Virus record (IMG/VR): IMGVR_UViG_3300017766_003987
Span: 1 to 64,000 of that record
Length of the DNA: 64,000 nucleotides
Origin: a virus
Direction: 5' to 3' (one strand)
Part shown: positions 1 to 40,715 of the stretch, piece after piece
How the letters are laid out: every line of letters begins with the position of its first letter
Numbering within the stretch: position 1 is the stretch's first letter
Program-made: the position numbers and the translations under genes
The notes under the pieces: model-generated
The model's input: the letters and a program-made list of their open reading frames with translations, nothing else
Told to the model about the DNA's origin: nothing
Databases searched by the model: none

Positions 1-55
1 AGGGGAAGTCGCCGATGCCCAAATATCGAGTTTGGATTCTAATGATTGCCCCCCA

Positions 56-360
56 CACCTATTAGGATGCCACCCATTAGGATGCTACCTATTGCCAGAG
101 GCACTTATTAGGATGCTGCTCATTGCCTATGGCACTTATCAGCATGCAACCCTTTCATTTTTCAATGATCGATCTTTCATTCAGTGCTCTGCTACTTATC
201 GGTCAACAGATCGACCGTTAGCTTTGATGCTACTTATCGGTCAGCGTATCGACCGTTACAATGCCATTCTACCTATCGGTCACCCTATTGAATGCTAGCT
301 TCGATGCTACCTATCGGTCGACATTGTGAACGTCCACTGCTCTGCTACTTATCGTTCACC
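56..360. repeat. Left-end repeat array: GCTACYTATCGGTCA-type units at 191, 229, 268, 306, 344 (38-39 bp period), plus ATTAGGATGC and TGCC-N3-GGCA motifs
   Basis: Repeats read directly; no credible CDS. Confidence 0.85.
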
Positions 361-924
361 CTGTTGAACATGGCAGCATTGCTGTCGCATCCTCGGGCCC
401 AGCACCAGCGCAACGACCCGCAGCACATGCCAGCGTTTAGAACAAACGCTGCCCTAATTGCGCCCACGACGTTGCGCCGTACGACGAAATGACCCCACTC
501 AAGTATGCCCCACTACGTTGCCCACCCTGTCCCGTCGTACGGCGCACCCTATCGCCTTTTTATGTAACCTGTCCTGCCCTATCCCAACGCCTCGACCCCC
601 CATCAACCAGCGCAACGTGTCGCCCTGCCGTCGCCCTGTTCCCTGCCCACGCATTCACCCACCCTGCCCTGTTTCCCCTCGCCGTCGCACAATCGCACGC
701 CCAGCAGGGAACGCCCCTGTGACGCCCTGCAACGGGGCGACGTATCCCTACCCATCGAACCGACGATCCGTCACAGGGCGCATCCTGCTCGCCCTGTAAA
801 CGGCCCTGCCCAACCAGCTGGTCCCGTCGACCCTGAGCGCCTCTCCCAACGCCAGATCCCAGATGTCAATCGAATAATACGGCAAGCAGGATATTTCGTA
901 CTTTTCCCAAAAATCGACCAAATA

Positions 925-1095
925 TCGGTTGACACCATTTCGGCCTCCCAAGGCCCGGGCGACCAGCGGGCAATCCTTTCCCATCTGGGTCAACAACCCT
1001 TGCGCTGGGGGTCGAATCTTGACCTGCCCGGTCATGTCAGAAAATGGCGCAGCCTCGGTGTCTCATCCCGTGCCGTTGAGTGCGCGTCGTCATTA
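925..1095 (-). ncRNA. Putative small ncRNA, copy A (homologous to 10055-10175)
   Basis: Directly behind an early-type promoter (1101-1133), no RBS/ORF; about 70 nt align with copy B with a conserved TGAC/GGTCA hairpin; 3' end uncertain. Confidence 0.55.
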
Positions 1096-1182
1096 AAAGA
1101 AATATCCCACGCTTTCGCGCGGGACACAACCCCTTATCGGATTTTATTTTGCCGCTCGCCTTTAGACCGCCAAGGCGGGGGA

Positions 1183-1353
1183 TTATTCCCCCGTTTGGTT
1201 TTCGTAAGTTGCTTCCTGCCCACACCAGTAATAAACGCCGGCGATTGCTGCCTGAAGCGTCTTGAAATGCTTCTTATTGCCCGTGAACGTAAAGGTCACG
1301 GTGAACTTGTTGGTCTTGGACGTTTCGTTCTTGGTGATGATTGCGTTGGTCAT
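1183..1353 (-). CDS. Hypothetical early protein (56 aa, below ORF-track cutoff)
   Basis: GGGAGA RBS + ATG after promoter at 1381; MTNAIITKNETSK...GE*. Confidence 0.7.
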   Translation of the reverse strand: MTNAIITKNETSKTNKFTVTFTFTGNKKHFKTLQAAIAGVYYWCGQEATYENQTGE

Positions 1354-1436
1354 TTGTCGTCTCCCGTTTGCGTTGATTTGTTATCCCATCCTCGAGCAGG
1401 ACGGGCAACCGAAATCGGATGCCCCGTGACGATTTT

Positions 1437-1685
1437 TCAAACATACAAACCGGCGCGAATTGCGGCGATCATGCTGGTGCAGGGGTGATACGTATCGCCC
1501 AGAATCTCGGGCGCGTAAACGAACCATTCCCTTGCCGATCCTCCCGATTGCGTGCCGCCGATGACCTGGAACGTGCGGTCGGGGCCCTGCAACGTCACCG
1601 TGAAGCGCCCATTGCTGACCTGCTCGACCGTCACGGCGTCGCAGTCAAGGAAATATGTGTGCCGACGCAGTTTGAGGATTGCCAT
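1437..1685 (-). CDS. Hypothetical early protein
   Basis: ORF with RBS, coupled to upstream gene. Confidence 0.7.
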   Translation of the reverse strand: MAILKLRRHTYFLDCDAVTVEQVSNGRFTVTLQGPDRTFQVIGGTQSGGSAREWFVYAPEILGDTYHPCTSMIAAIRAGLYV

Positions 1686-1686
1686 T

Positions 1687-1845
1687 TCAATTCCCCTTCT
1701 TGCGGAACACCTCGGCGGTCACGCCAAGGGAGTTGACGAGATAGGCCGCTTCGCGCTTGAGCGTCGCAACGTTAGCGGGGCAATCCAGCAGGGCGTCGCC
1801 GACCTGTTCCCAAGCGCCGTTTTTGAGGATGAACACTGCGATCAT
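1687..1845 (-). CDS. Hypothetical early protein (52 aa)
   Basis: Cassette promoter + AAAGGG RBS; MIAVFILKNGAW... Confidence 0.7.
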   Translation of the reverse strand: MIAVFILKNGAWEQVGDALLDCPANVATLKREAAYLVNSLGVTAEVFRKKGN

Positions 1846-1908
1846 TTTTCAGGCCCTTTCGTTTCAACAGGATTGTTATCCCACGACCTGCCGCAGGAGG
1901 CAACCCCC

Positions 1909-2109
1909 TTAAACGAACCAGCGCCAAGTAATATCGTAACCAATCATGATGGCGACCGGCATCAGGATCGCAAGGGCAGCGACGAAGCCCGCGATCAATT
2001 GCGCCCAAGCGCCCATTTCTTCAAGACGACGAATGCGGTCACGGCGCGCGTGGCACGCGGCCTGCTTGCGGCGAAGGTTGGCGATAGGGGCGTAGGAGGA
2101 GGTGGTCAT
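1909..2109 (-). CDS. Hypothetical early membrane protein
   Basis: Cassette RBS; C-terminal hydrophobic helix. Confidence 0.7.
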   Translation of the reverse strand: MTTSSYAPIANLRRKQAACHARRDRIRRLEEMGAWAQLIAGFVAALAILMPVAIMIGYDITWRWFV

Positions 2110-2175
2110 TTCGGGGGTTCCTTTCGTTTCAACAAATAAAACATCCCACACCGAAGCGTGGGATGCAACCCCTAT

Positions 2176-2448
2176 TCAGACGATATTTTCAAGGGATGCC
2201 GCACGAATGTGCTGCAGGGCGTTAACGACGATGCGCCGTTCCACAATCGAGCGTCGCCCATCGATGAGTGAGGCGAGAACGCGCATGCTGGGCAAATTCG
2301 GGGCGACCCATGCGCCCTCGGTCACGTACGCCGTCACGTTGCGCATGGGGTCGGAATACCAGCGTTGCTGCGTTCCCTGCTGCGACCATTGCGACACGGT
2401 ACGGGTGGCAGCCTTGAGACGCTGAATTTCGGTTTGTGCGAAGTTCAT
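2176..2448 (-). CDS. Hypothetical early protein
   Basis: GAGG RBS, ORF. Confidence 0.7.
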   Translation of the reverse strand: MNFAQTEIQRLKAATRTVSQWSQQGTQQRWYSDPMRNVTAYVTEGAWVAPNLPSMRVLASLIDGRRSIVERRIVVNALQHIRAASLENIV

Positions 2449-2452
2449 TTTG

Positions 2453-2662
2453 TCAACCTCTCGTTTCGGTTTTCACAGAGACGACCATGTCGAACCCCAG
2501 ATCAGGGATACAGGCAAAATCGCCCCGGTTCTCGCTCGACGTGAGCACATATGCGCAATCCTCGGCGGTCAATCCGAAGTCGACCTGCTGCGCCTCGACC
2601 GATCCCGACGGGGAGGTCACAAGGGCGATTAGGATGTAGGCGGTGGCGGAGGTCATCGGCAT
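2453..2662 (-). CDS. Hypothetical early protein
   Basis: Cassette promoter and RBS. Confidence 0.65.
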   Translation of the reverse strand: MPMTSATAYILIALVTSPSGSVEAQQVDFGLTAEDCAYVLTSSENRGDFACIPDLGFDMVVSVKTETRG

Positions 2663-2729
2663 TTCCCTTTCGTTTTTCAACACAAGGAACATCCCATGCT
2701 TTCGCACGGGATGCAACCTGTATTCGGAA

Positions 2730-3053
2730 TTATTTCAGCGCCTCGACCCGGGCAACGTGGTCGAGCATCTCGGCAATGTACCCTTTTGCCTCGGCATATT
2801 CATTGGGGGTCATGTCGAGCGCCCACGGGGCGGCATTGCGCTCGGGATATCCGTCGCGGGGTGCGTCGAGCAGAGCGGTGCACATTTCGCAAATGTCGCG
2901 AATGGTGGGCGCTGCAAGCAACATATACATCCAGGCGAGATCGGACGTGTTGAGCGTGCGAAGCAGCAACAGGGCGTTGCGCTCGGTCATTTCGCGATTA
3001 AGGTCGGCGAGCATGGGCAGGGCGAGAGTCGAGTTTTTTGCGTAGGAGGTCAT
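2730..3053 (-). CDS. Hypothetical early protein
   Basis: Cassette promoter and RBS, start MTSYAKN. Confidence 0.75.
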   Translation of the reverse strand: MTSYAKNSTLALPMLADLNREMTERNALLLLRTLNTSDLAWMYMLLAAPTIRDICEMCTALLDAPRDGYPERNAAPWALDMTPNEYAEAKGYIAEMLDHVARVEALK

Positions 3054-3194
3054 TTGCGTTACCTTTCGTTTCGACACACAATGTATCCCACAACCAGCAC
3101 GCAGATGCAACCTCCCTATCGCAAAATAATAGGGCAGCGAATGTGCCCTATCGCCAGGTCGCTGCTTCCCCTCGACCACAGGGGGATGCCGTTG

Positions 3195-3461
3195 TCAAAC
3201 CCCTTTACCCATCCAATCGCCCATTGCGTCGCCCATGCCCATCCCAGCGTCAAACGCCTCATGCCGGCGACCAGCAGGGAACGGGTTTGCGATGGGTCGA
3301 CGGCGATACATGGCATTGCCCTCGCCCCAGTCGTAAGCGTCGCGCACCGCGTCGCCCTGTGCCTTGCGCCAATGCCGTTTCTCACGGCGAGGGTGCGGAT
3401 ACCCGTATTCAAGGCGAGCCCGCGTGACAGCGGCGCGGTGGCGTTCAGAACGTTTCGTCAT
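3195..3461 (-). CDS. Hypothetical early protein
   Basis: GGAG RBS, ORF. Confidence 0.65.
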   Translation of the reverse strand: MTKRSERHRAAVTRARLEYGYPHPRREKRHWRKAQGDAVRDAYDWGEGNAMYRRRPIANPFPAGRRHEAFDAGMGMGDAMGDWMGKGV

Positions 3462-3464
3462 TTG

Positions 3465-3656
3465 TCAACTCCAAATCCAAACGGTGTAATTATCGCGGGT
3501 GTCGATTTTGGCGTCCTCGCCATATGCCTTGACAAGGTCGGCGCGAACCGTATCGGGCAAATCCCCGTCTTCGTCATCCTCGTCCCATAGGGGCGCTTCA
3601 AAGGCGCATTCGAAGTATCCGTCTTCGCTTCGGTCGTATTCGATCCAATTCGGCAT
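3465..3656 (-). CDS. Small acidic early protein
   Basis: RBS; D/E-rich. Confidence 0.7.
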   Translation of the reverse strand: MPNWIEYDRSEDGYFECAFEAPLWDEDDEDGDLPDTVRADLVKAYGEDAKIDTRDNYTVWIWS

Positions 3657-3668
3657 TGTCAACCCCCT

Positions 3669-3887
3669 TTAGGACAGAATTGCACCATGGAACCACCCAT
3701 GCGGTCCCATGCGCTGATATTGCACCACGACGAACCCACCGGGGTGATCCGCCTCGACCTTGTCACGCTGGGCCCGAGCGTCGTCCATCATTTTGACATA
3801 GGTGGGGTAAACGGCGACGAAGACGGGGTCGCCGTTGACCATTACGTTCAGTTTGCATTCGGGGGAGGTGGAGGTCGGTTCGCACAT
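3669..3887 (-). CDS. Hypothetical early protein
   Basis: Cassette promoter and RBS. Confidence 0.7.
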   Translation of the reverse strand: MCEPTSTSPECKLNVMVNGDPVFVAVYPTYVKMMDDARAQRDKVEADHPGGFVVVQYQRMGPHGWFHGAILS

Positions 3888-3952
3888 TTGGGATGCCTTT
3901 CGTTTCGTTGATTTGTTATCCCATGACCCGACCGAGGATGCAACCCCTCAAA

Positions 3953-4249
3953 TCAATAATTCACCTCCCAAACGCGGATTTTCCCGACCGTATCGTTGCG
4001 CGAGCGCAGCACGCCTTTGGCGACGAGCAGGGACAACGCCTTGCGAATATCGTCCTCCCGCTCAATCGACCAATCGTACCCATCAATGGCACACACCAGC
4101 GTTGCAATGCGCGACAGCGGCAGGGCGGCGCTAGGGAGGGCGAGGAACGTTGCCCGTATCGCATAGGCGAACCGACGGTCGGTCGGCACGAATGCGAAGC
4201 AATTGGCGACCTTTTGGTGCAGGTCGAGATTCGGGGAGAACGTGGTCAT
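3953..4249 (-). CDS. Hypothetical early protein (possible winged helix)
   Basis: RBS; DIRKALSLLVAKGVL resembles a wHTH C-terminus. Confidence 0.7.
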   Translation of the reverse strand: MTTFSPNLDLHQKVANCFAFVPTDRRFAYAIRATFLALPSAALPLSRIATLVCAIDGYDWSIEREDDIRKALSLLVAKGVLRSRNDTVGKIRVWEVNY

Positions 4250-4380
4250 TTGCGGGATTCCTTTGCAAGGGCGCGAAGACGCGCCAGGTCGACGCGAGCG
4301 GCGTCATATTCGGCAACGTTCAAAGGATCGGCGGCAATGAACCTTTTGCGGGCATTTTCGATTTGATCGGCGAGGGTCAT
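4246..4380 (-). CDS. Hypothetical early protein
   Basis: Cassette promoter and RBS; ATGA overlap with next gene. Confidence 0.65.
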   Translation of the reverse strand: MTLADQIENARKRFIAADPLNVAEYDAARVDLARLRALAKESRK

Positions 4381-4440
4381 TTTGCGGGGTTCCTTATTTC
4401 GATGAAAAATCATCCCACGACCGAGCAGGGGATGCAACCC

Positions 4441-4647
4441 CTATTCGGTCATTTCCGCCTGCCGTTCCCACGCCTCGGCGCGGCGGGTCATGTTCGCGAC
4501 ATCCCGGGCGGCGAGCGATCCCGAGCGAGGGGAGCCGCCTGGATACAGGGCGATTGCCTTGCGCATGTGCCCGGCTGCCTCGGCCCATTGCAAGGCGTCG
4601 GCGCATTCCCGGGCGAGGGCGCGATGGAGGGCGGTCGTTTCGGTCAT
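4441..4647 (-). CDS. Hypothetical early protein
   Basis: Cassette promoter, GAGGTG RBS. Confidence 0.7.
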   Translation of the reverse strand: MTETTALHRALARECADALQWAEAAGHMRKAIALYPGGSPRSGSLAARDVANMTRRAEAWERQAEMTE

Positions 4648-4674
4648 TTCGTCACCTCGTTTGTTGACGCCTTG

Positions 4675-4920
4675 TTATCCCATAACCGGGGCGAAGACGC
4701 AACCCTCTTGGTCGGGGTGCAGGCGATGCACGGGGCGGGGTGCGTGCTCATCGATCCCATCTATGCCCAGCGAGGTCATGTATTCGATGTTGCGCACGTT
4801 CGGCGCAGCGTCCTCCCATAACGGGTAGGAAATGCCGACCATGGGCCCGAGATTGCCGATGTAGGCGGTGCGGGGTTCGACAAACACCGTCACACGGGAT
4901 GCTTCGAAGCGATGGGTCAT
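4675..4920 (-). CDS. Hypothetical early protein
   Basis: Cassette promoter and RBS. Confidence 0.7.
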   Translation of the reverse strand: MTHRFEASRVTVFVEPRTAYIGNLGPMVGISYPLWEDAAPNVRNIEYMTSLGIDGIDEHAPRPVHRLHPDQEGCVFAPVMG

Positions 4921-4985
4921 TTGCAGGGGGTTCCTTGTTTCGACAAAAATACAATCCCATAACCGGCAGGGGGATGCAACCCCCA

Positions 4986-5231
4986 TTAAGCGAGATCGGC
5001 ATTTTCCTTGAGCCAGGCGACCGCTTCGTTGAAGCGATTGCGCGATGCCTGGTGGTGCAGGTCGAGTTCGACCGCAGCGTCGGCGAATTCCCTGCTGGTT
5101 GCATCGGGGAAATCGAGCAGGACGGCGCTCGCCGCGCAACGCATGGCGTTGGCAAGGGTTTCGTCGCCCGCCTGATAAAAGCGCAGATCGTTCTCGATCA
5201 AGGCGACGATTGCGTCATGGCGGTCGGTCAT
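4986..5231 (-). CDS. Hypothetical early protein
   Basis: Cassette promoter and RBS. Confidence 0.75.
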   Translation of the reverse strand: MTDRHDAIVALIENDLRFYQAGDETLANAMRCAASAVLLDFPDATSREFADAAVELDLHHQASRNRFNEAVAWLKENADLA

Positions 5232-5301
5232 TTGTGTTCTCCCTTTCAACACAAATGTTATCCCACAAACGGGTCGCGACAGCAACCGAGAATCGGATGT
5301 T

Positions 5302-5622
5302 TCAGCGAAAATATGCCGCTCGTTCGCCCCATTTTCGCTCAATGGCGACCCGGGCGCTGGGGTATGCTTCGTACGCCTCGGCATCCTTGACAAAATCGTG
5401 ATCGGTCGTCTCGCGCACCCAGTGCAGGCGCTCGCCGGGGGTCATCGAAGCAGCATCGCCGAGGGCGACCCGTTCACGGCGGGCAATTTCGTCCTCCATG
5501 GCAACCGCCTTGGCATCGGTCATCGTTTCGGACGTGCCGTCGAGATAGGCAGCGATTTTGCCCAGCATGTCGGCAGTCGTGTAACCGGGGAAGGCGGCGG
5601 TGGGAAATGCGGAGTCGGACAT
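5302..5622 (-). CDS. Hypothetical early protein
   Basis: Cassette promoter and RBS. Confidence 0.75.
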   Translation of the reverse strand: MSDSAFPTAAFPGYTTADMLGKIAAYLDGTSETMTDAKAVAMEDEIARRERVALGDAASMTPGERLHWVRETTDHDFVKDAEAYEAYPSARVAIERKWGERAAYFR

Positions 5623-5707
5623 TTGGGGGTTCCTTTCGTTCAACACAAATGTTATCCCACAAGGGCGAGACAGAGGCAACCGGGAATCGGTCGCCCCTGC
5701 GATGTTT

Positions 5708-6196
5708 TTACGCGCCCTGCTGTGCCTTTCCCCACTTGTAAAACTGGGTGCTGGCAGTCGACTTATCGACGCCAAGGGCGACGCAAGCGGCAATCACGTC
5801 CTTGCGGGCAGCGCCGATCATCTCGCCGGCGATGCGCCAAACGACCTTGACAGGCGATTCCACGGTCGAGCGCGGGCGAACGGGCGACGGGGCGGCAGGG
5901 TCTCGCCATGCGGCGGGATCGAGAGGTTGCACGACCCAACCAGCGGGCACGTCGCCGGGGATGTCGGCGAGGGCGCAGGTCACGACCGCACAAGGGGCGA
6001 GGCGTCCGCCCTCGATAATCGCCCATTCGACGTGGTGCACGCATTCGGCATGACCCCACTCGAGATCCCCGGTGGGCAGGCCAAGGTCGACCTCCCGCGC
6101 GTACCACAGGGACATCTTCAGGTCAAAGTAGGTCGTGAAATTCGACCACTTGGCGGAGGCAGCGGCGACGGCGGAGGCGCGGGTGATGTGGGGCAT
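5708..6196 (-). CDS. Early protein with C-terminal putative HTH (TASTQFYKW family); paralog of 35503-36036
   Basis: Shared HHVEW, PCxVVTC and ESPVKVVWRxAxEM...KSTASTQxYKW motifs. Confidence 0.8.
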   Translation of the reverse strand: MPHITRASAVAAASAKWSNFTTYFDLKMSLWYAREVDLGLPTGDLEWGHAECVHHVEWAIIEGGRLAPCAVVTCALADIPGDVPAGWVVQPLDPAAWRDPAAPSPVRPRSTVESPVKVVWRIAGEMIGAARKDVIAACVALGVDKSTASTQFYKWGKAQQGA

Positions 6197-6276
6197 TTGG
6201 GGTTCCTTTGTTTTCGTCGTTTTCGACAATCAATGTATCCCATGCTTGGGCACGGGATACAACTGAAATCGGATTG

Positions 6277-6456
6277 TTAATCGCCGAAATTCGCTCCCTC
6301 TTCCTTCACCCGTACGGCATGCGCCGTGACCAGCGCAAGCGCCTCCTGCTGCCGGTCATATTCGTCTTCTTGCTCGTTCATTTCAGCATCGCGCTTGTCA
6401 AGCGCGTTTTCCTCGGCAAGGGACAGAACGAGGGCGAGGGCGTCATTAAGGGTCAT
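6277..6456 (-). CDS. Small acidic early protein
   Basis: Cassette promoter and RBS. Confidence 0.7.
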   Translation of the reverse strand: MTLNDALALVLSLAEENALDKRDAEMNEQEDEYDRQQEALALVTAHAVRVKEEGANFGD

Positions 6457-6535
6457 TTTCAGGGGTTCCTTGTGTTTGCGTTTCGATGAATGACCATCCC
6501 ACGATTGACGCGGGATGGCAACCGGCAAGATGCGA

Positions 6536-6742
6536 TTATTTCGCTTTCATGCCCGCTTCGTACGCCATCACCATGAGCACGTGAAGCGTCGAGCGTGACA
6601 CGCTGGCAAAATCAAGAGAATCGCTGCGCTGGTCGATAAAATCGGTCAGCACATCCCCGTTCTCGTTGCGCACCTTGACATCCCGCAGAATGCCGCGAAG
6701 CACGCGATCCCGTTCGTGACGCTGCAGTTCGTTCATTGCCAT
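6536..6742 (-). CDS. Hypothetical early protein
   Basis: Cassette promoter and RBS. Confidence 0.7.
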   Translation of the reverse strand: MAMNELQRHERDRVLRGILRDVKVRNENGDVLTDFIDQRSDSLDFASVSRSTLHVLMVMAYEAGMKAK

Positions 6743-6802
6743 TTGCATTTCCTTTCGTTTCAACACAAATGTTGTCCCATGACTGGCGACGAGATGCAAC
6801 CC

Positions 6803-7045
6803 CTATTCGACCCAATCGGGTTCTTTTTCGTGCAACAAAAACGCCTTGCAGTCGTTCGATAGGGCGACCGCGGCGGGCCCGTCGTCCTGCTCAGGGCAAT
6901 CCATATCGACAAGGTCGCCCGTCACAGGATCGAATTCGAACCAGTAGGCACGCGTCGCCCTGAGCGTCGAGCAAGGGAAAACGCGATTGAACGCGGCGAC
7001 CTCGGCACGTGCAACCAGCACCTTGCGCCCATTGAGAATTTGCAT
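6803..7045 (-). CDS. Hypothetical early protein
   Basis: RBS, ORF. Confidence 0.7.
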   Translation of the reverse strand: MQILNGRKVLVARAEVAAFNRVFPCSTLRATRAYWFEFDPVTGDLVDMDCPEQDDGPAAVALSNDCKAFLLHEKEPDWVE

Positions 7046-7056
7046 TTGTCAATCCC

Positions 7057-7272
7057 TTAGTTGGTACGTACGCAGACGCCGGCATCGATGGCGTTTTGCA
7101 AGAATGTGTCGCACATGCGCGCTTCGGTCGCCTCGGAGGACGTTTGCCCCGTTTGAGCGCACAGTTTGCGATACAGGGTGAAGATCGCCGACCCGCCGCC
7201 CACCGGGGTGGTCACGGCGAGGGCGGACAGAATCAGGTCGAGTTCGCGGGGGTCGAGTTCGGGGAGGGTCAT
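7057..7272 (-). CDS. Hypothetical early protein
   Basis: Cassette promoter and RBS. Confidence 0.7.
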   Translation of the reverse strand: MTLPELDPRELDLILSALAVTTPVGGGSAIFTLYRKLCAQTGQTSSEATEARMCDTFLQNAIDAGVCVRTN

Positions 7273-7357
7273 TTCGTTTCGCCTTTCATTTCGATAACCC
7301 TTTGTCCCATATCTCGAGCAGACACACACTACAAATCGGATGCCTCGCCCAAAATAA

Positions 7358-7531
7358 TTAGGGCAGAGATGCTGCCCCTAAAACGCTATCAACCTCCCGG
7401 TTATGTTTGTCAACAATTTTTTGCACATCCTCGACTTTCGCGGGGTGCAATTCAGCGACCAGCGTCGCCTTGCCGGGCGTGCCATCGTCTTCGATGTAGA
7501 TGGCGCTGCCGCGCCTTTCCCAGTATTCCAT
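7358..7531 (-). CDS. Hypothetical early protein (57 aa)
   Basis: AAGGGG RBS; MEYWERRG...LP*. Confidence 0.6.
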   Translation of the reverse strand: MEYWERRGSAIYIEDDGTPGKATLVAELHPAKVEDVQKIVDKHNREVDSVLGAASLP

Positions 7532-7589
7532 TTGTCAACCCCTTTCAAGGGCGAGATGGGGAGGGGATCATTCCCCTCCCTGTTGCCGG

Positions 7590-7874
7590 TTACATCGAGT
7601 GATAGGTTTCGCTCGACGGGTCGAGGTAGAGCGGGGTGTCGCGGTCGATCCAGAACCAGCCCGATTCCGTGCGATTGAGGAGGTTCTGCTTGCGAACCAT
7701 TTCGACGGCGCGAACCTCAAATGCCGCCTTGACGCGGCGATCCTCGGTCGTGCGGATCGCCTTGAATTTCAGCGCCTCGCCGTCAGCGCCCTTGAGCCCC
7801 GTGCGGGCCGCCTGCTCGTTCAGATGGGCGACGATTGCGGTGGCGACTTCGATGGTCAGGAGGGGGTGGGTCAT
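7590..7874 (-). CDS. Hypothetical early protein
   Basis: Cassette promoter and RBS. Confidence 0.75.
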   Translation of the reverse strand: MTHPLLTIEVATAIVAHLNEQAARTGLKGADGEALKFKAIRTTEDRRVKAAFEVRAVEMVRKQNLLNRTESGWFWIDRDTPLYLDPSSETYHSM

Positions 7875-7964
7875 TTGCGGGGTTCCTTGTGTGTGTTTGT
7901 TTCGACACCCTGTTATCGCAAATCTCGACGGGGGAAGCAACCCCCATCGAGACGATTTTTGATT

Positions 7965-8309
7965 TTATTTCCTCCCTGAAGCGAGCAGCGCCGAACGGGT
8001 CGCCGCTTCGATATCGTCGGCGGGGTTCGCCTTCAACCCCGCGCCCTGATATACATGCCGACGGCAGGCAACGACCTCGGTCAGATCCCACAACATGATA
8101 TCGCAGAATTTGGCAAGGTCGGTCGGGCGGATTGTGAACTCGATGGTCATGGGCACGCCCTGCCCATCGCTGAAGTCGGGGTTCAGGCAAGCGATGCCGT
8201 ACCAGCAGGAAACCTGACCGTTGGTGTCAACATCCACAATCAGATTGACCGTTGACATCTCGAATTCGCGGAAGGCGGCGAGGAATGCTTCGGCGACGGG
8301 GGTGCTCAT
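7965..8309 (-). CDS. Hypothetical early protein
   Basis: Cassette promoter and RBS. Confidence 0.75.
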   Translation of the reverse strand: MSTPVAEAFLAAFREFEMSTVNLIVDVDTNGQVSCWYGIACLNPDFSDGQGVPMTIEFTIRPTDLAKFCDIMLWDLTEVVACRRHVYQGAGLKANPADDIEAATRSALLASGRK

Positions 8310-8442
8310 TTGTGTGTTCCCTTTCGTTTGAACAAAAACACAATCCCACGACCTCGAGCAGGAGGCAACCGACGAGATGCGTTTTTGTTGAAAATAAAGG
8401 GGCAGAAGGGGTGCCCTATTTCGGACACCCCTTGCCGTCGGT

Positions 8443-8940
8443 TCAGGCGACCACAGGGGGAGCGACCTCGACCGGGGCGGCGTTTGCGGGGTTCGACGCC
8501 GCCGCCTTGCGAAGGGCGAACCACTTCTGATACTGGGTGCGCGCCGTCGCGAAATTGACGCCGTGATCTTCGACAAGGGCGAGCATGGCGTCCTTGCGCT
8601 TCATGTCGGCGTTGGCGTTGAGGAACCCATGCACGAACGCCAAGGGGGATTCGACCTTTGACGGCACATATTTCGGCATCTGCTTGTAGAGGTTGCGCTT
8701 CGTCACGGGGGCGACCTCGGCGACGGGGAGATCCTTGCTCGCCTCGGCGAGGGCGGCGGCCTCAGCGGCGATTGCCGCGGCGGCATCGAGATCGGCGAAC
8801 ATGTCGGCGACCGAAGCGGCGTATTCGGATTCGTACGCAGCGAGCGGGGCAGCGTGACGACCGGCGCGCCAATCGGCGAAGGGGGCGAGATTGTTCAGGG
8901 CGCGGAAGGCGTTCAGCGAGACGAGGTTCAGGTTGGTCAT
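8443..8940 (-). CDS. Early protein with C-terminal putative HTH (TARTQYQKW); paralog of 62009-62656
   Basis: Shared N-terminal LNAFR..PFADxR..RHA and C-terminal SKxESP...TARTQYQKWFA. Confidence 0.8.
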   Translation of the reverse strand: MTNLNLVSLNAFRALNNLAPFADWRAGRHAAPLAAYESEYAASVADMFADLDAAAAIAAEAAALAEASKDLPVAEVAPVTKRNLYKQMPKYVPSKVESPLAFVHGFLNANADMKRKDAMLALVEDHGVNFATARTQYQKWFALRKAAASNPANAAPVEVAPPVVA

Positions 8941-9180
8941 TTCAGGGGTTCCTTGTGTGTGTTTTGCGTCGTTTCGTTTCGACAGGTTTGTTATCCGACA
9001 TCCCGCAAAAGCATGCAACTGAAAAAGCGCTGGCGGCGACGATTTTTATAGGGCAAGCATCCTGCCCTAAGTCGCAGTCAATATAATGGGCGAAAAATTC
9101 GCACAAAACGACCAATTCTCGGTTGCCGCCTGAGCGAGGATGTGGGAGGGTGTTTGTGTTGAAACGAAAGGGAAAACGAA

Positions 9181-9405
9181 ATGATGAAACGAATTGAAAA
9201 CGCCGCCGACCTCGACACGCTGGTCGGCGCTGCCGCCGAAACGGGCATCGGGGTCGCCCTGCTGATGATCCTTGTGGGCGACGTTGTGCTGGTCGGCGTG
9301 CCGCTGATCGGCGTGTATCTCGACGGGCGCTTCGACGTTGCCCTACCCACCTCAACCGGCGAGATCGTCACGTTCGACTTCGCCAAGGTCGAGGTGTTCG
9401 CATGA
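9181..9405 (+). CDS. Hypothetical early protein
   Basis: Divergent cassette promoter at 9121 and RBS. Confidence 0.7.
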   Translation: MMKRIENAADLDTLVGAAAETGIGVALLMILVGDVVLVGVPLIGVYLDGRFDVALPTSTGEIVTFDFAKVEVFA

Positions 9406-9710
9406 CCGTCGCTATCCTCACAACATACCTCCCTGTGACCAACCATCGGGGGTCACGCCTCAAGGCAACGACCATGCTGCCTCGCCCCGATGGGCAAAAG
9501 GTGAGCGTAACAGTCGGGCTATATGAGCTCCACGGTAACGACGCTGAAAAGCACGCCCAGGTCGCCAGGATGCTGGTCGAAAAACTCGGGTGGGCGGGTC
9601 GATGGGTCGGCGGCGATGCCGGCGGGGCGTCATATGTATTTGTCAAGGTGTTTTCCGACGTTCAGGCGCTCGGGTTCACAATCGACCCGCCTCCCTCGAC
9701 CAGCGAATAA
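9402..9710 (+). CDS. Hypothetical early protein
   Basis: ATGA overlap; TxYLPxTxxRGSR motif typical of small phage proteins. Confidence 0.7.
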   Translation: MTVAILTTYLPVTNHRGSRLKATTMLPRPDGQKVSVTVGLYELHGNDAEKHAQVARMLVEKLGWAGRWVGGDAGGASYVFVKVFSDVQALGFTIDPPPSTSE

Positions 9711-9792
9711 AAAGCGAGCAGGGCATCCGATTACGGGTGCCCTCTTCGTTTGGGTATGCGATAACAGGATATTGAAACGAAAGGGAAAACAA

Positions 9793-9999
9793 ATGTTCAT
9801 CGCCACCGCAATCGTTAAGGGTCTCAAGGTCGAGGTCAAGGCGACCGCCCGCTTCACGGCCGCTGCAGCCCTCGCTGAAATGTATCCCAAGGCGCAAGGG
9901 ATTATGACCGCCGAATTGGTCGCCGGTAACGGGGCGTACGTCGAAACGAACCGACGGATCACGGTGCGCGCGCCAGGCGGCGAATGGCGAACAATGTAA
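9793..9999 (+). CDS. Hypothetical early protein
   Basis: Cassette promoter and RBS. Confidence 0.7.
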   Translation: MFIATAIVKGLKVEVKATARFTAAAALAEMYPKAQGIMTAELVAGNGAYVETNRRITVRAPGGEWRTM

Positions 10000-10054
10000 A
10001 AATAAAATCTCAAAAGGGGTTGCGTCTCACGCGGGAGCGTGGGACGTTGGGTCA

Positions 10055-10175
10055 TAGGGAACGACGTGCACCGAGCGGCACGGCGGATGTACCAAGGCAG
10101 CCGATTTTTCTGAGATGACTGCTTCGGTCAGGTTCTCCCCGGGCGGCGGGCACGCAAAAACGTGTCAACCGAAAA
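10055..10175 (+). ncRNA. Putative small ncRNA, copy B (homologous to 925-1095)
   Basis: Behind promoter 10017-10048, no RBS/ORF; aligns with copy A. Confidence 0.55.
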
Positions 10176-10365
10176 GATCTCGCTTGCCCTAGGAGGTGCA
10201 AAAATATCTCGCTTGCCGCTCTTTCCCCTTGACATCTGCTCGAGCAGCAATCGGGCGCCAACCGAGCGGGGTGCGCGTGCTGGTCGGGCGTGGGATTGTT
10301 GACCATGGAGGGAGAGAACCCCGATGGGTATTTACCTGGACAGGTTCTTTCCCGGGAGGGTGAAG

Positions 10366-10690
10366 GGTGCCTCGGGCACCGATCAGCATCCCACCTAAGT
10401 TAGGTGCCTCGGGCACTAGTCGAAAAATGAAATGGTGCTCAGGCACCTATCAGCATCCAACTAGTTGCCTCGGGCAATAGGTGCCATTCTACCTATCAGG
10501 ATCGGAATAGGTGCCCCAGGCAATAGGTGCCCCAGGCACCAATTGAAATCGAAACCATTCGGATCCTACCTATCAGAATCCTCATAAGATCAAATTTTGA
10601 AAAACCCCATAAGATCAAAATTTGAAAAACCCCATAAGAGTAAAAATCCCCGTAAGATAAATTTTTGAAAAAGCCCATAAGATTAAATTT
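10366..10690. repeat. Right-boundary repeat array: GTGCC-N3-GGCAC palindromes, CCTATCAG motifs and about 25-bp CATAAGAT...TTGAAAAACC units
   Basis: Palindromes near 10367, 10404, 10435, 10465, 10511, 10527; CATAAGA-type units at 10583, 10608, 10633, 10651, 10676. Confidence 0.85.
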
Positions 10691-11035
10691 TCAATCGTCA
10701 ACCGGCCAACCGTCGAGCCCAATCAAAGGACGAGGCGATCCCTTTTCCGCGGCCTGTTCCGTGCTGTCGTGGTGCAGCTTGCAGAGCCCTTCATGATTGG
10801 ATCGTCGCCAGAAAATCTCCACGTTACCCCGGTGTGGTTGCTTGTGGTGAACAACTGTTGCAGGTTCTGTTAAACTCTGCTGTTCACACATTACGCATAG
10901 TGGATGTTCTTTGAGGAATTGCAGACGATACTTGCGCCACTTGTAATTGTAGAGATGGGCCCAAGGGCGTTGCTTCCCCTTCCATACGCCCCCCTCTCCC
11001 TCCCCCGGGTCCCCTCCCCCCGTCATCGCCCCCAC
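10691..11035 (-). CDS. HNH endonuclease (packaging-associated HK97 gp74-like)
   Basis: W...R..FL..HPLCxxC...ATVVHH..PHRG...FW..SN..GLC..HH...IGLDGWP; start uncertain. Confidence 0.85.
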   Translation of the reverse strand: MGAMTGGGDPGEGEGGVWKGKQRPWAHLYNYKWRKYRLQFLKEHPLCVMCEQQSLTEPATVVHHKQPHRGNVEIFWRRSNHEGLCKLHHDSTEQAAEKGSPRPLIGLDGWPVDD

Positions 11036-11144
11036 CCCCTACCCCCGGGCCCCCGCCCCCATAGGGCCCCCGTCAGCAACGCCCCGCCCCGCATGGGGTT
11101 TCCCCCTACTGACGTGCGACGACAAGGGCTCATGTGCGGAAACG

Positions 11145-11687
11145 TCATCGTGGCCAACGTCCTGAGGTCTTCATTTCGAAGATGTTATGCTGAAGCGTGT
11201 CGGCCCAATCCTCCGCCCAACCGTATTGCCTCGACCACCAGCCAGGCGTGCCGATGCTGCCATATTCGCTCGATAAGACGATCTTGCGTTCCTTTGCATC
11301 CGCCTTTCGAAAGTTAGCAATGAGATCTGCAACCCATTGCGATGCATAGGGCAGCATCCCATCCTTGCTGATAGGTTCCCACTCGTCGCCTGTAAACAAT
11401 CGACTGCCGATCACCAGTGCTCGGAACGAAATATGCGACCACAGGAAGGCAAGGCCCTCAAGGTAGGCCGTGCGCTGGTCCGTATGGCGAATGACTTCTT
11501 TGTGCCAATCAGTCCAATTGCGCCGACTGTCCTCGTCCAGCTCAAAGGTGCCGCTGACCGATATCGTTCCCACGTCGCCGGGAAACGATGCCATCCAACG
11601 GTCAATGACTTCGCCGACGTTTTGAAACTGCCCGTCCTGTGAGAGAACTTCGATTTTATGCGTCTTAAGAATTGGTGCTGTCGCCAT
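11145..11687 (-). CDS. Hypothetical protein
   Basis: ORF in leftward operon, GGAGAG RBS. Confidence 0.7.
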   Translation of the reverse strand: MATAPILKTHKIEVLSQDGQFQNVGEVIDRWMASFPGDVGTISVSGTFELDEDSRRNWTDWHKEVIRHTDQRTAYLEGLAFLWSHISFRALVIGSRLFTGDEWEPISKDGMLPYASQWVADLIANFRKADAKERKIVLSSEYGSIGTPGWWSRQYGWAEDWADTLQHNIFEMKTSGRWPR

Positions 11688-11988
11688 CGGTCTCTCCAAG
11701 ATCCACGTACCTGATCAACGACTTCTTAATCGTTGCATCGAAGTACGAACCATGCGTGTATCCTACGTTCTTCCAATTGTTCCTGGCAACTGTGGCCTGC
11801 CCTCGAGTGTCGAAAACTTCAGGATGAGCATGCCATTTCTTTTGTGTGTCGAGCTTCATCAGCAATACGTAACCGGTATTCGAAGCCAATTCCATCTCCA
11901 ATTCAATTTCAGCTGCTCGAACTGCACTCGACACCAACCCGTCCGCTTGCATGGACTGAGGTGTTCTCCTCCCTCGTCGAGCTGACAT
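11665..11988 (-). CDS. Hypothetical protein
   Basis: ORF in operon; start uncertain. Confidence 0.6.
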   Translation of the reverse strand: MSARRGRRTPQSMQADGLVSSAVRAAEIELEMELASNTGYVLLMKLDTQKKWHAHPEVFDTRGQATVARNNWKNVGYTHGSYFDATIKKSLIRYVDLGETDGDSTNS

Positions 11989-11992
11989 AGTT

Positions 11993-12343
11993 TTATCTGA
12001 TATCGACCGGCAATGCGTCCACGACATCACAAAACCACTTGTACCATTCATCATGGGTGGTCGAGTTTGAGGGGACGATTCCTTCAGGGGCCTTCAGCTC
12101 AAGTGCGGTAAGGCAAAGATCGATCATGTCGTTCGACCAATACGCCGCGATACCCATGAAACGGGCTTCGAACGGCGAGCTAGTAAATTTTTGGGCTGAC
12201 TCTTCACATTCGTACGAATCCGAGCTGCCTGCATCTTTGAGCATACGAAGCATTAGCCGTGCTGTGCGCTTGTCACGCTCACCCACTGCGATGATCGGTT
12301 CTTCAGACGTGTCGATCATAGTCGATTCTTCAGGAGTGCTCAT
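11993..12343 (-). CDS. Hypothetical protein
   Basis: GAGG RBS, overlap with upstream ORF. Confidence 0.7.
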   Translation of the reverse strand: MSTPEESTMIDTSEEPIIAVGERDKRTARLMLRMLKDAGSSDSYECEESAQKFTSSPFEARFMGIAAYWSNDMIDLCLTALELKAPEGIVPSNSTTHDEWYKWFCDVVDALPVDIR

Positions 12344-12591
12344 TCAATGTACCTCGTTTCAGGGAGGGGTTGATGGATGCGCCTGTAATGCTCGATATCG
12401 CGCAAAGCATCGTCTTCGGTGGCGCGCCAATAGGCATCAGGAAGATTCCACCATACATCAAACCACAAGAAGTGGTTGCGAACCTGAGCAATGCAAAGTC
12501 GCTCCCGTCTATCTGCGTTAGGCCCAAGGGTAATCACTATGGCCCATCTAATACGAAACTTCGGTAAATTATTAGATGGGCACTTGGGCAT
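12340..12591 (-). CDS. Hypothetical protein
   Basis: Tiles operon. Confidence 0.6.
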   Translation of the reverse strand: MPKCPSNNLPKFRIRWAIVITLGPNADRRERLCIAQVRNHFLWFDVWWNLPDAYWRATEDDALRDIEHYRRIHQPLPETRYIE

Positions 12592-40025: not shown

Positions 40026-40715
40026 ATGGCCACTGACATCCGCACCAAGATCGCCGCCCTGCTCGCCAAGGCCGAAAGCACTGATAACGTCTTCGAAGCC
40101 GAAAGCTTCATGGACAAGGTCAACGAACTTCTCGAGACCCACCAGATCGAAATGCATGAGATTCGTGCGTCGATGGGGGCACAGAAGGATTCCGATCCGC
40201 TGGGCAAGGAAAAGGGCACGACCAATCTCTATGCTTCGATCAAGTGGGCCCGTGACGTTGCCGGCGCTCTGGCGAAGTACTACGGTTGCCGGTTCGTTTA
40301 CTGGAAGCGTGGCAATCACTTCACCTATGAGATCATCGGTCGCGAATCTGCGCGTACCACTTTCGAGCTGATGCTGCCTTTCGTTATCTCGCAGGTCAAG
40401 CAGCAGGCAAAGCGGATGCACATGATCCACGGCGTCAATACGTTGGCGGTTTGGGAACGCGAAGTCGGTCAGGCACTCTACGTGCGTATCTGGAACATGA
40501 TCCCCAAGGCCGAAGCCCACCGCGCCGATCTCGGTTCGAAGGCGCTTATTCCTGTGGACGACGTTCAGGCATTCATGGATGCTACCTACGGCGATCTCAA
40601 GAAGAGCCGCCAGTTGAAGATCAGCTACACACTCGAGGCTCAGGAAGCAGCGAAGCGCGTCTCGATCAACGTCCAGGCGACGGGTCGCGGCAAAGTCAAG
40701 TTGTTGGAGAAGTGA
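40026..40715 (+). CDS. DUF2786-domain protein
   Basis: KIAALLAKAEST.N..EAESF..K..ELL..HQI; cassette promoter at 39952. Confidence 0.8.
   Translation: MATDIRTKIAALLAKAESTDNVFEAESFMDKVNELLETHQIEMHEIRASMGAQKDSDPLGKEKGTTNLYASIKWARDVAGALAKYYGCRFVYWKRGNHFTYEIIGRESARTTFELMLPFVISQVKQQAKRMHMIHGVNTLAVWEREVGQALYVRIWNMIPKAEAHRADLGSKALIPVDDVQAFMDATYGDLKKSRQLKISYTLEAQEAAKRVSINVQATGRGKVKLLEK

Follow-up and report, generated by a model that had tools for sequence, protein, structure and literature searches.

The window analysed here comprises bases 1-64000 of the 107,266-bp IMG/VR virus record IMGVR_UViG_3300017766_003987, which CheckV rates as complete, and our subject is a pair of homologous promoter units without a gene (henceforth the twins) near its left end, at 1153-1020 on the minus strand and 9996-10130 on the plus strand. 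Between the twins lies an early block, about 9 kb of small early genes arranged in a long leftward arm (9018 to 1183) and a short rightward arm (9121 to 9999), and the early open reading frames (ORFs) that we tested matched no Pfam or PHROG family. Some 20 promoters of a single class are found at 1131-10018, with essentially none elsewhere in the genome: an A-rich upstream element is followed by GGTTGC-N16-TGGGAT, readable also as TTGCAT-N17-(TG)nGATAAC. Ordinary cassettes of the block continue with a ribosome-binding leader of the GAAACGAAAGG type, no more than about 25 nucleotides (nt) after the promoter, and then usually with ATGACC. In several early promoters (1102-1127, 2140-2170, 2690-2718, 6235-6262, and 10022-10045), the spacer is palindromic (ATCCCAC-N7-GTGGGAT) and folds into a hairpin of 9-11 bp whose loop is GNRA-like, in some cases with a T-rich tail behind it; such a hairpin might combine a terminator with a promoter, or it might be the operator of a dimeric regulator.

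Two outward early promoters without a gene border the early block

An earlier note, made from the sequence alone, had described twin homologous non-coding RNA (ncRNA) genes pointing outward from both ends of the early block, and the two sequences that it quoted were indeed located, from 1090 on the minus strand and from 10061 on the plus strand. Each is preceded by a promoter of the early class and consists of a conserved non-coding core. The left promoter (1104-1153, minus strand) has an A-rich upstream element and GGTTGT-N16-TGGGAT, and in its spacer a GAAA loop caps an 11-bp hairpin, behind which comes a T-rich tail; our scan flags 1127-1102 as terminator-like. The right promoter (9996-10045, plus strand) has an A-rich upstream element and GGTTGC-N16-TGGGAC, with a 9-bp hairpin and a GGGA loop in the spacer. 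The promoter and the core are similarly spaced in the two copies, as had been proposed, the distance from GGGAY to the start of ACGACG being 13 nt on the left and 15 nt on the right. The left core (1020-1090, minus strand) then proceeds through CGGCACGG and TTTTCTGAcATGAC to TGACC-N5-GGTCA, and the right core (10061-10130, plus strand) is homologous to 1090-1020 of the minus strand. The twin promoters are the outermost of their class (1131, minus strand; 10018, plus strand), fire outward by prediction and each face a repeat array, and the ribosome-binding leader GAAACGAAAGG is missing from both units.

From ACGACG to GGTCA, the two cores align over 71 columns with 70% identity and one gap. The local alignment score of the twins is 30, compared to 8.6 +/- 1.6 for shuffled sequences (none of 2000 shuffles reached 30), and BLAST against the whole 107-kb record returned these two copies only. 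TTCTGAnATGAC and the palindrome TGACY-N5-RGTCA are confined to the twins, and GTGTCAACCGA occurs exactly only at 935 (minus strand) and 10162 (plus strand). By the criterion of the earlier note itself, a similarity that did not exceed that of arbitrary cassette leaders would refute its claim. The twins escape this narrowly: they do score highest, but the best pairs of ordinary cassettes reach 29 and 26, while the mean of all 171 cassette pairs is 14 +/- 5.4. Those two high scores arise because ordinary cassettes have the ribosome-binding leader (and ATGACC) in common, and beyond +38 the twin pair is again the highest (19 versus 15). The near-equal raw scores thus mark the twins as special by what they share, not by how much. 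We conclude that the two units are a real, unusual, and well-delimited feature.

The twins are the inner ends of a diverged inverted repeat

The homology does not stop at the cores. Read outward, both flanks have collinear blocks in common well past the core, making the twins the inner ends of diverged inverted repeats that run from 1153 to 56 on the left and from 9996 to 10513 on the right. Beyond the core, the blocks are collinear with their spacing kept, and their chained score is 124 compared to 47 +/- 8 for shuffles. Most distinct is a second conserved segment in which GTGTCAACCGA, AAATATCYYGCTTGCCG, and TTGACATCT follow each other in the same order and at the same spacing (942-861 on the left and 10155-10237 on the right). 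The left copy (861-942, minus strand) reads GTGTCAACCGA, AAATATCCTGCTTGCCG, TTGACATCT, and the right copy (10155-10237, plus strand) reads GTGTCAACCGA, AAATATCTCGCTTGCCG, TTGACATCT, with an extra degenerate copy of AAATATCTCGCTTGCCG at 10173-10189. The outermost shared block, 41 nt at 80% identity, already lies inside the arrays (118-78 versus 10451-10491). Since the homology continues outward into the arrays as a long gapped inverted repeat, the twins are one component of a more extensive mirrored border.

Inverted copying of cassettes is not restricted to the borders. Within the early block, the promoter and leader at 8314-8372 (minus strand) and those at 9119-9177 (plus strand) are 83% identical over 59 nt, and as these form the innermost divergent promoter-leader pair, which is thus itself an inverted duplicate, inverted cassette copying recurs in the block. 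The right flank holds, moreover, a degenerate outward cassette (10269-10398, plus strand) comprising GGGTGC-N16-TGGGAT, GGAGGGAGAG, and a 24-codon ORF that runs into the array with an ambiguous codon score of 0.38; its -10 block is homologous to 689-702 on the left. An invertible segment of the Hin/Gin type was considered and rejected, as the 107-kb record contains no match to Resolvase or Phage_integrase.

The left iteron array (56-400) is built of 15-, 31-, and 38-bp units around a [CG]YACYTATYRG core on the plus strand, and its outer part (78-118) forms the outer end of the inverted repeat. The right array (10367-10690) begins with palindromic GTGCCnCnGGCA units, continues with plus-strand iterons oriented as on the left, and ends in five AT-rich 25-mers. 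The iteron core occurs on the plus strand in 8-10 copies on the left and in four copies on the right (10367-10590), where two more are reversed. Owing to this common orientation, the arrays are direct repeats, whereas the twins and the blocks behind them are inverted. The iterons hold TTATC-like cores such as CTTATCAGCA, which by eye agrees at 7/9 positions with TTWTNCACA, a consensus that may not be the DnaA box of the host.

Between the left array and the second conserved segment, the outward-transcribed strand is rich in G runs (400-811, minus strand); this tract has the most extreme GC skew of the genome and lacks a right-flank counterpart in this orientation. Its G3 runs are GGGCAGGG-like, and the G-rich strand runs 5' to 3' toward the genome end at position 1, an orientation that, speculatively, is that of Chi-like sites facing an entering exonuclease. 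Another G-rich tract of about 110 nt (11036-11144, minus strand) occupies the intergenic space upstream of an HNH endonuclease gene and has dense G5 runs and two G-quadruplex-type motifs, constituting the most G-rich 200-nt window of the genome. As a marker of the origin, cumulative GC skew was uninformative, because the skew tracks gene orientation.

The cores are very probably non-coding and lack the hallmarks of structured RNA genes

That the cores are non-coding, as the earlier note had it, is very probable. A coding alternative is suggested by TGAnATGAC, kept in both copies, in which a short upstream ORF would end at the conserved TGA and be coupled to an ATG-initiated peptide (MTxxV[KR][IF]xP...), and the first nine codons show two third-position changes that look synonymous (ACC/ACT and CCC/CCG). 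Yet no Shine-Dalgarno sequence is found 5-12 nt before the conserved ATG, the ATG-initiated ORFs are of unequal length (95 codons on the left and 25 on the right) and diverge after codon 9, and every aligned difference between the upstream ORFs alters the residue. Codon log-likelihood scores are 0.13 and -0.56 for the two ORFs, compared to 0.58-1.04 for real early genes, and fall below zero for the upstream ORFs, while core mismatches are distributed over the codon positions as 10/4/7, with no 3-periodicity. A search of 1.8 billion representatives revealed no true homologue of the 95-codon left ORF, its four marginal matches all being long repetitive proteins. We regard translation of the cores as highly improbable.

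The designation of the twins as ncRNA genes is not supported either. For four core or extended pieces and two pieces of about 250 nt, the fold z-scores are 0.57, -0.45, 0.26, -0.10, 0.48, and -0.96, equal to shuffles, and the minimum-energy folds of the two copies differ. The RNAalifold consensus retains just two hairpins of 4-5 bp, 35 nt apart, with zero compensatory pairs. Of the hairpins with variable loops that had been proposed, the left CGYGC..GCACG stem has a C.A mismatch. The stem changes are one-sided and of opposite strand preference: hairpin 1 pairs better when read on the antisense strand, hairpin 2 when read on the sense strand. Conserved stems whose 4-5-nt centres vary completely would be explained just as well by two half-sites. 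Rfam cmscan of both strands of window 1-12500 yielded no match at E <= 1. Neither outward strand has an intrinsic terminator; weak helices precede a tract of 4-5 U at about +50, beyond which the conservation continues. Thus, of the features of a small RNA (sRNA) gene, the twins have a promoter of their own as predicted from sequence, but neither a terminator-defined 3' end nor a stable or conserved structure.

The early block probably lies at a cohesive genome end

The record closes with 12 nt (GGGAAGTCGCCG, 107255-107266) that are identical to window positions 3-14, and no second copy of this end sequence is present near 10.7 kb. The terS gene (phrog_5601, E = 2e-46) begins 109 nt inside the right end of the record and is followed on the same strand by a gene for a Terminase_1-type large subunit (TerL) and then by one for a protease-capsid fusion. 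The HNH endonuclease gene mentioned above is located at 10691-11035 (minus strand), and in HK97-like HNH phages the cohesive end is located between the HNH gene and terS. The end overlap, the position of terS at the end, and the HNH gene point to cohesive ends rather than to a long direct terminal repeat, and we infer that the ends of the record are the true cohesive ends. Among phages with a related TerL in IMG/VR, at least 20 contigs end 0.35-0.6 kb upstream of the TerL gene, which fits with fixed ends at that spot. Since the first 10.7 kb fall between the HNH gene and the end bearing terS, the early block probably lies at the cohesive genome end.

Upstream of terS, a sigma-70-like TTGCGA-N16-TATAAA can be seen by eye that was not called by the promoter scanner. 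At minus-strand genes of the late operon (about 104.4 kb and 105.9 kb of the record), TTCCTGTGGA recurs 8-20 nt upstream of the ribosome-binding site or the ATG and is preceded by TGAGCCCC. TTCCTGTGGA is absent from the early block; it probably serves as a promoter, middle or late, or else as an RNA signal.

Relatives of the twins were not found beyond this phage

We scanned several collections for orthologues of the border region. Pattern searches gave chance matches: 11 for the core pattern in IMG/VR, all in coding sequence, 11 for a second core pattern in JGI metagenomes, and 11 for the pattern of the second segment in IMG/VR. The cassette-leader pattern gave only chance matches in 185,579 GTDB genomes, and blastn in 'distant' mode matched neither flank to any of 50,697 GenBank phage records. 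With megablast, window 1-12000 gave just one match, of 45 nt and within an early ORF. The closest relatives, as judged by DNA polymerase, TerL, capsid, and primase, have 44-65% identity at best (65% for the DNA polymerase only); most are phages of about 50 kb, and they do not have the early block. One early protein (9402-9710) has a single homologue of 87% identity, on a 3.6-kb contig, and no relative in IMG/VR.

The promoter pattern recovered one true cassette in IMG/VR, that of the Rhizobium phage RHEph04. There, one copy of the same promoter, leader, and ATGACC lies on the minus strand at 40063-40090 of the RHEph04 record (compare window 8518-8562), and RHEph04/05/06/26 have a 45-nt stretch of 95.6% identity in common with the early ORF at 8443-8940. 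Together, these hint at a host among the Rhizobiales and at an exchange of early cassettes.

Discussion

What might a promoter of the early class do with no gene behind it? We tentatively favour, at somewhat below even chances, a role in cis: the twins would be mirror-image elements of the block's borders, each an orphan promoter that has operator-like palindromes and fires into a putative protein-binding array. To our mind, paired cis-acting border elements of a genome-end early block are also the most economical interpretation, held with the same reserve. Each unit comprises a full early-class promoter of the sigma-70 type by sequence, and firing outward it would transcribe the conserved leader of about 70 nt, then the second conserved segment of about 80 nt, and then the iteron array. 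The downstream palindromes (TGACY-N5-GGTCA and GYGCAC-N4-CGGCAC) would be putative DNA sites or operators. What such a unit delivers would be RNA polymerase moving into the array, not a folded trans-acting RNA, and its passage might open, clear, or activate the array, by analogy to transcription-activated origins or to transcription-assisted DNA entry and end processing. In this scheme, the firing of the promoters, the binding of a protein at the palindromes, and the role of the arrays are all putative.

Several observations weigh against cis-acting border elements. Conserved stems with variable loops would also be expected of an RNA hairpin, and the protein that binds the palindromes is so far postulated. 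No orthologue appeared in any of the collections, such that promoter activity and selection on the core are presumed from this one sequence. The iterons are in direct rather than mirrored orientation, so the mirrored part may be unrelated to the function of the arrays, and the two outward strands are very unequal in G-richness, which is confined to the left. Finally, given that the flanks hold at least one decayed cassette (10269-10398), the twins could be simple relics.

The last point leads to the alternatives. If a border segment with its promoter cassettes had been duplicated in inverted orientation, the genes could have decayed and the promoters been kept by descent, leaving units that would perhaps end each arm but otherwise serve no function themselves. 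The inverted pair at 8314-8372 and 9119-9177 and the degenerate right-flank cassette, with its left homologue of the -10 block, accord with such a history, as do the retention of ATGAC(C/T), the usual start context of a cassette, in the twins and the left promoter hairpin with its T-tail, which resembles a terminator for the leftward arm. Even decay, however, would not be expected to leave patchy conservation in exactly spaced blocks, both promoters are still near consensus, and nowhere in the genome is there a cassette leader or gene that the core resembles; we consider mere relics unlikely. We think it equally improbable that the twins are two paralogous trans-acting sRNAs made early from both ends of the block, as a host-takeover sRNA or a protein decoy. 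Strong early-class promoters do stand ahead of some 70 nt of conserved non-coding sequence, the two short stems with variable loops include one G-C to G-U change, and both copies have a U-rich tract (AUUUUCU or UUUUUCU) after weak helices at about +50. Against this, the fold energies are like those of shuffles, the two folds are unlike each other, a compensatory pair, an Rfam family, and a proper terminator are all lacking, and conservation extends beyond the U-tract into the flank. Nor is there excess complementarity to 202 phage start regions, since the best antisense duplexes (-47 to -48) equal those of shuffled twins (-48 +/- 3-4).

Two further roles that the earlier note had offered fare worse. 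As an R-loop or primer, the outward transcripts would remain annealed to a G-rich tract and serve either to prime an iteron origin or to open it. On the left, the outward strand at 301-900, with the most extreme GC skew of the genome and 31 GGG versus 3 CCC runs, does meet the criteria for R-loop formation, and the right array has an origin-like layout of iterons and five AT-rich 25-mers. The right outward strand, in contrast, has no R-loop-forming sequence, and near the right array, the G runs (11036-11144) are carried by the opposite strand. With the left side alone qualifying, we rejected the symmetric R-loop idea: G-tract and array form a direct, not a mirrored, repeat and cannot explain mirrored twins. 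Early host-type promoters would, in addition, fire before phage replication proteins exist. We regard an R-loop role as very doubtful. An antitermination leader, whether put-like or similar to PR'-qut, would let transcription from the left unit cross the cohesive end and enter terS and the 26-kb structural operon of the minus strand. The put RNAs are two stable stem-loops that head long operons, and the homologous putL and putR of HK022 are non-coding elements of about 70 nt just downstream of two divergent early promoters and transcribed outward. The twins are likewise a pair of homologous non-coding elements of about 70 nt after divergent early promoters, with a gene-less leader behind a strong promoter and a -10-like GGATG at about +27 in both copies. 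Once the ends are joined, terS points the same way as the left unit, and so do all large ORFs called between 107 kb and about 90 kb and most of those as far as about 81.5 kb; at 88.1-89.4 kb, short plus-strand ORFs were called. Unlike put, the twins have no fold signal, and two adjacent stable stem-loops in about 70 nt were not found. They also come last in their arms. Across the end, terS and the late genes lie ahead of the left unit; the right one faces a convergent operon and would run antisense into the HNH gene and the primase operon. The late genes, moreover, have their own recurrent TTCCTGTGGA motif near their starts. An antiterminator function is thus very unlikely.

Among known systems, the nearest described architecture is, by analogy, the first-step-transfer region of T5. 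There, 131-bp distant inverted repeats (IRC-spacer-IRD and IRD'-spacer-IRC') are set next to a tandem array in repeat regions that are not translated; they are presumed to act in cis, and their function is unresolved (Davison, bioRxiv 10.1101/866236). The present phage likewise has inverted homologous segments of about 130 bp kilobases apart, untranslated repeat-laden regions, an early block of about 10 kb at the genome end, and adjoining tandem arrays, that is, distant inverted repeats with tandem arrays in untranslated regions around an early block. It differs in its Terminase_1-type TerL with HNH and its 12-nt end overlap, whereas T5 has a 10-kb direct terminal repeat and another terminase type. 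The T5 repeats also carry paired DnaA boxes, are not described as promoters, and have no sequence similarity to the twins.

Other parallels are looser. The leader of lambda PR' (6S RNA and qut) resembles the left unit only, being a gene-less leader behind a strong promoter with the late operon across cos, but here the late genes appear to have a motif of their own, the second copy would be left unexplained, and no terminator or Q-like gene was identified. Gene-less promoters that fire into G-rich or AT-rich, repeat-bearing regions are found at T7 phi1.1A/B with its AT-rich region, at the R-loops of T4 ori(uvsY) and ori(34), and at ColE1 RNA II, and the twins may be akin to such transcription-activated origins, from which they differ by one-sided G-richness, by having two units 9 kb apart, and by an initiator and origin that are only hypothetical. 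The host-takeover module of SPO1 is a terminal block of about 10 kb, with divergent arms and numerous small genes that each have their own strong early promoter and ribosome-binding site. The present block is likewise a terminal block of small, promoter-led early genes in divergent arms, but that of SPO1 lies inside a 13-kb terminal redundancy, and we know of no paired orphan promoter-leader units described at its ends.

At phage genome ends, early host-takeover blocks frequently have puzzling borders of untranslated repeats, and those of T5 remain unexplained after decades. Here, a phage unrelated to T5 and probably of another packaging type has the same layout plus a consensus early promoter without a gene at each border. 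One could go further and propose a cos-type, HNH-associated siphophage that has independently evolved a T5-like 'first-entering' early block, with mirror-image orphan promoters at its two borders whose outward-moving transcription would, on reaching the arrays, control a physical step; we rate this stronger version as quite unlikely. If true, the step would be the resumption of DNA entry, the firing of an origin, or the protection or processing of the end, and it would represent a new cis-acting use of gene-less promoters. If the promoters act in cis on the arrays, they would offer a simple genetic handle on the role of such border regions, and if they are relics, they would be an example of the duplication and decay of promoter cassettes.

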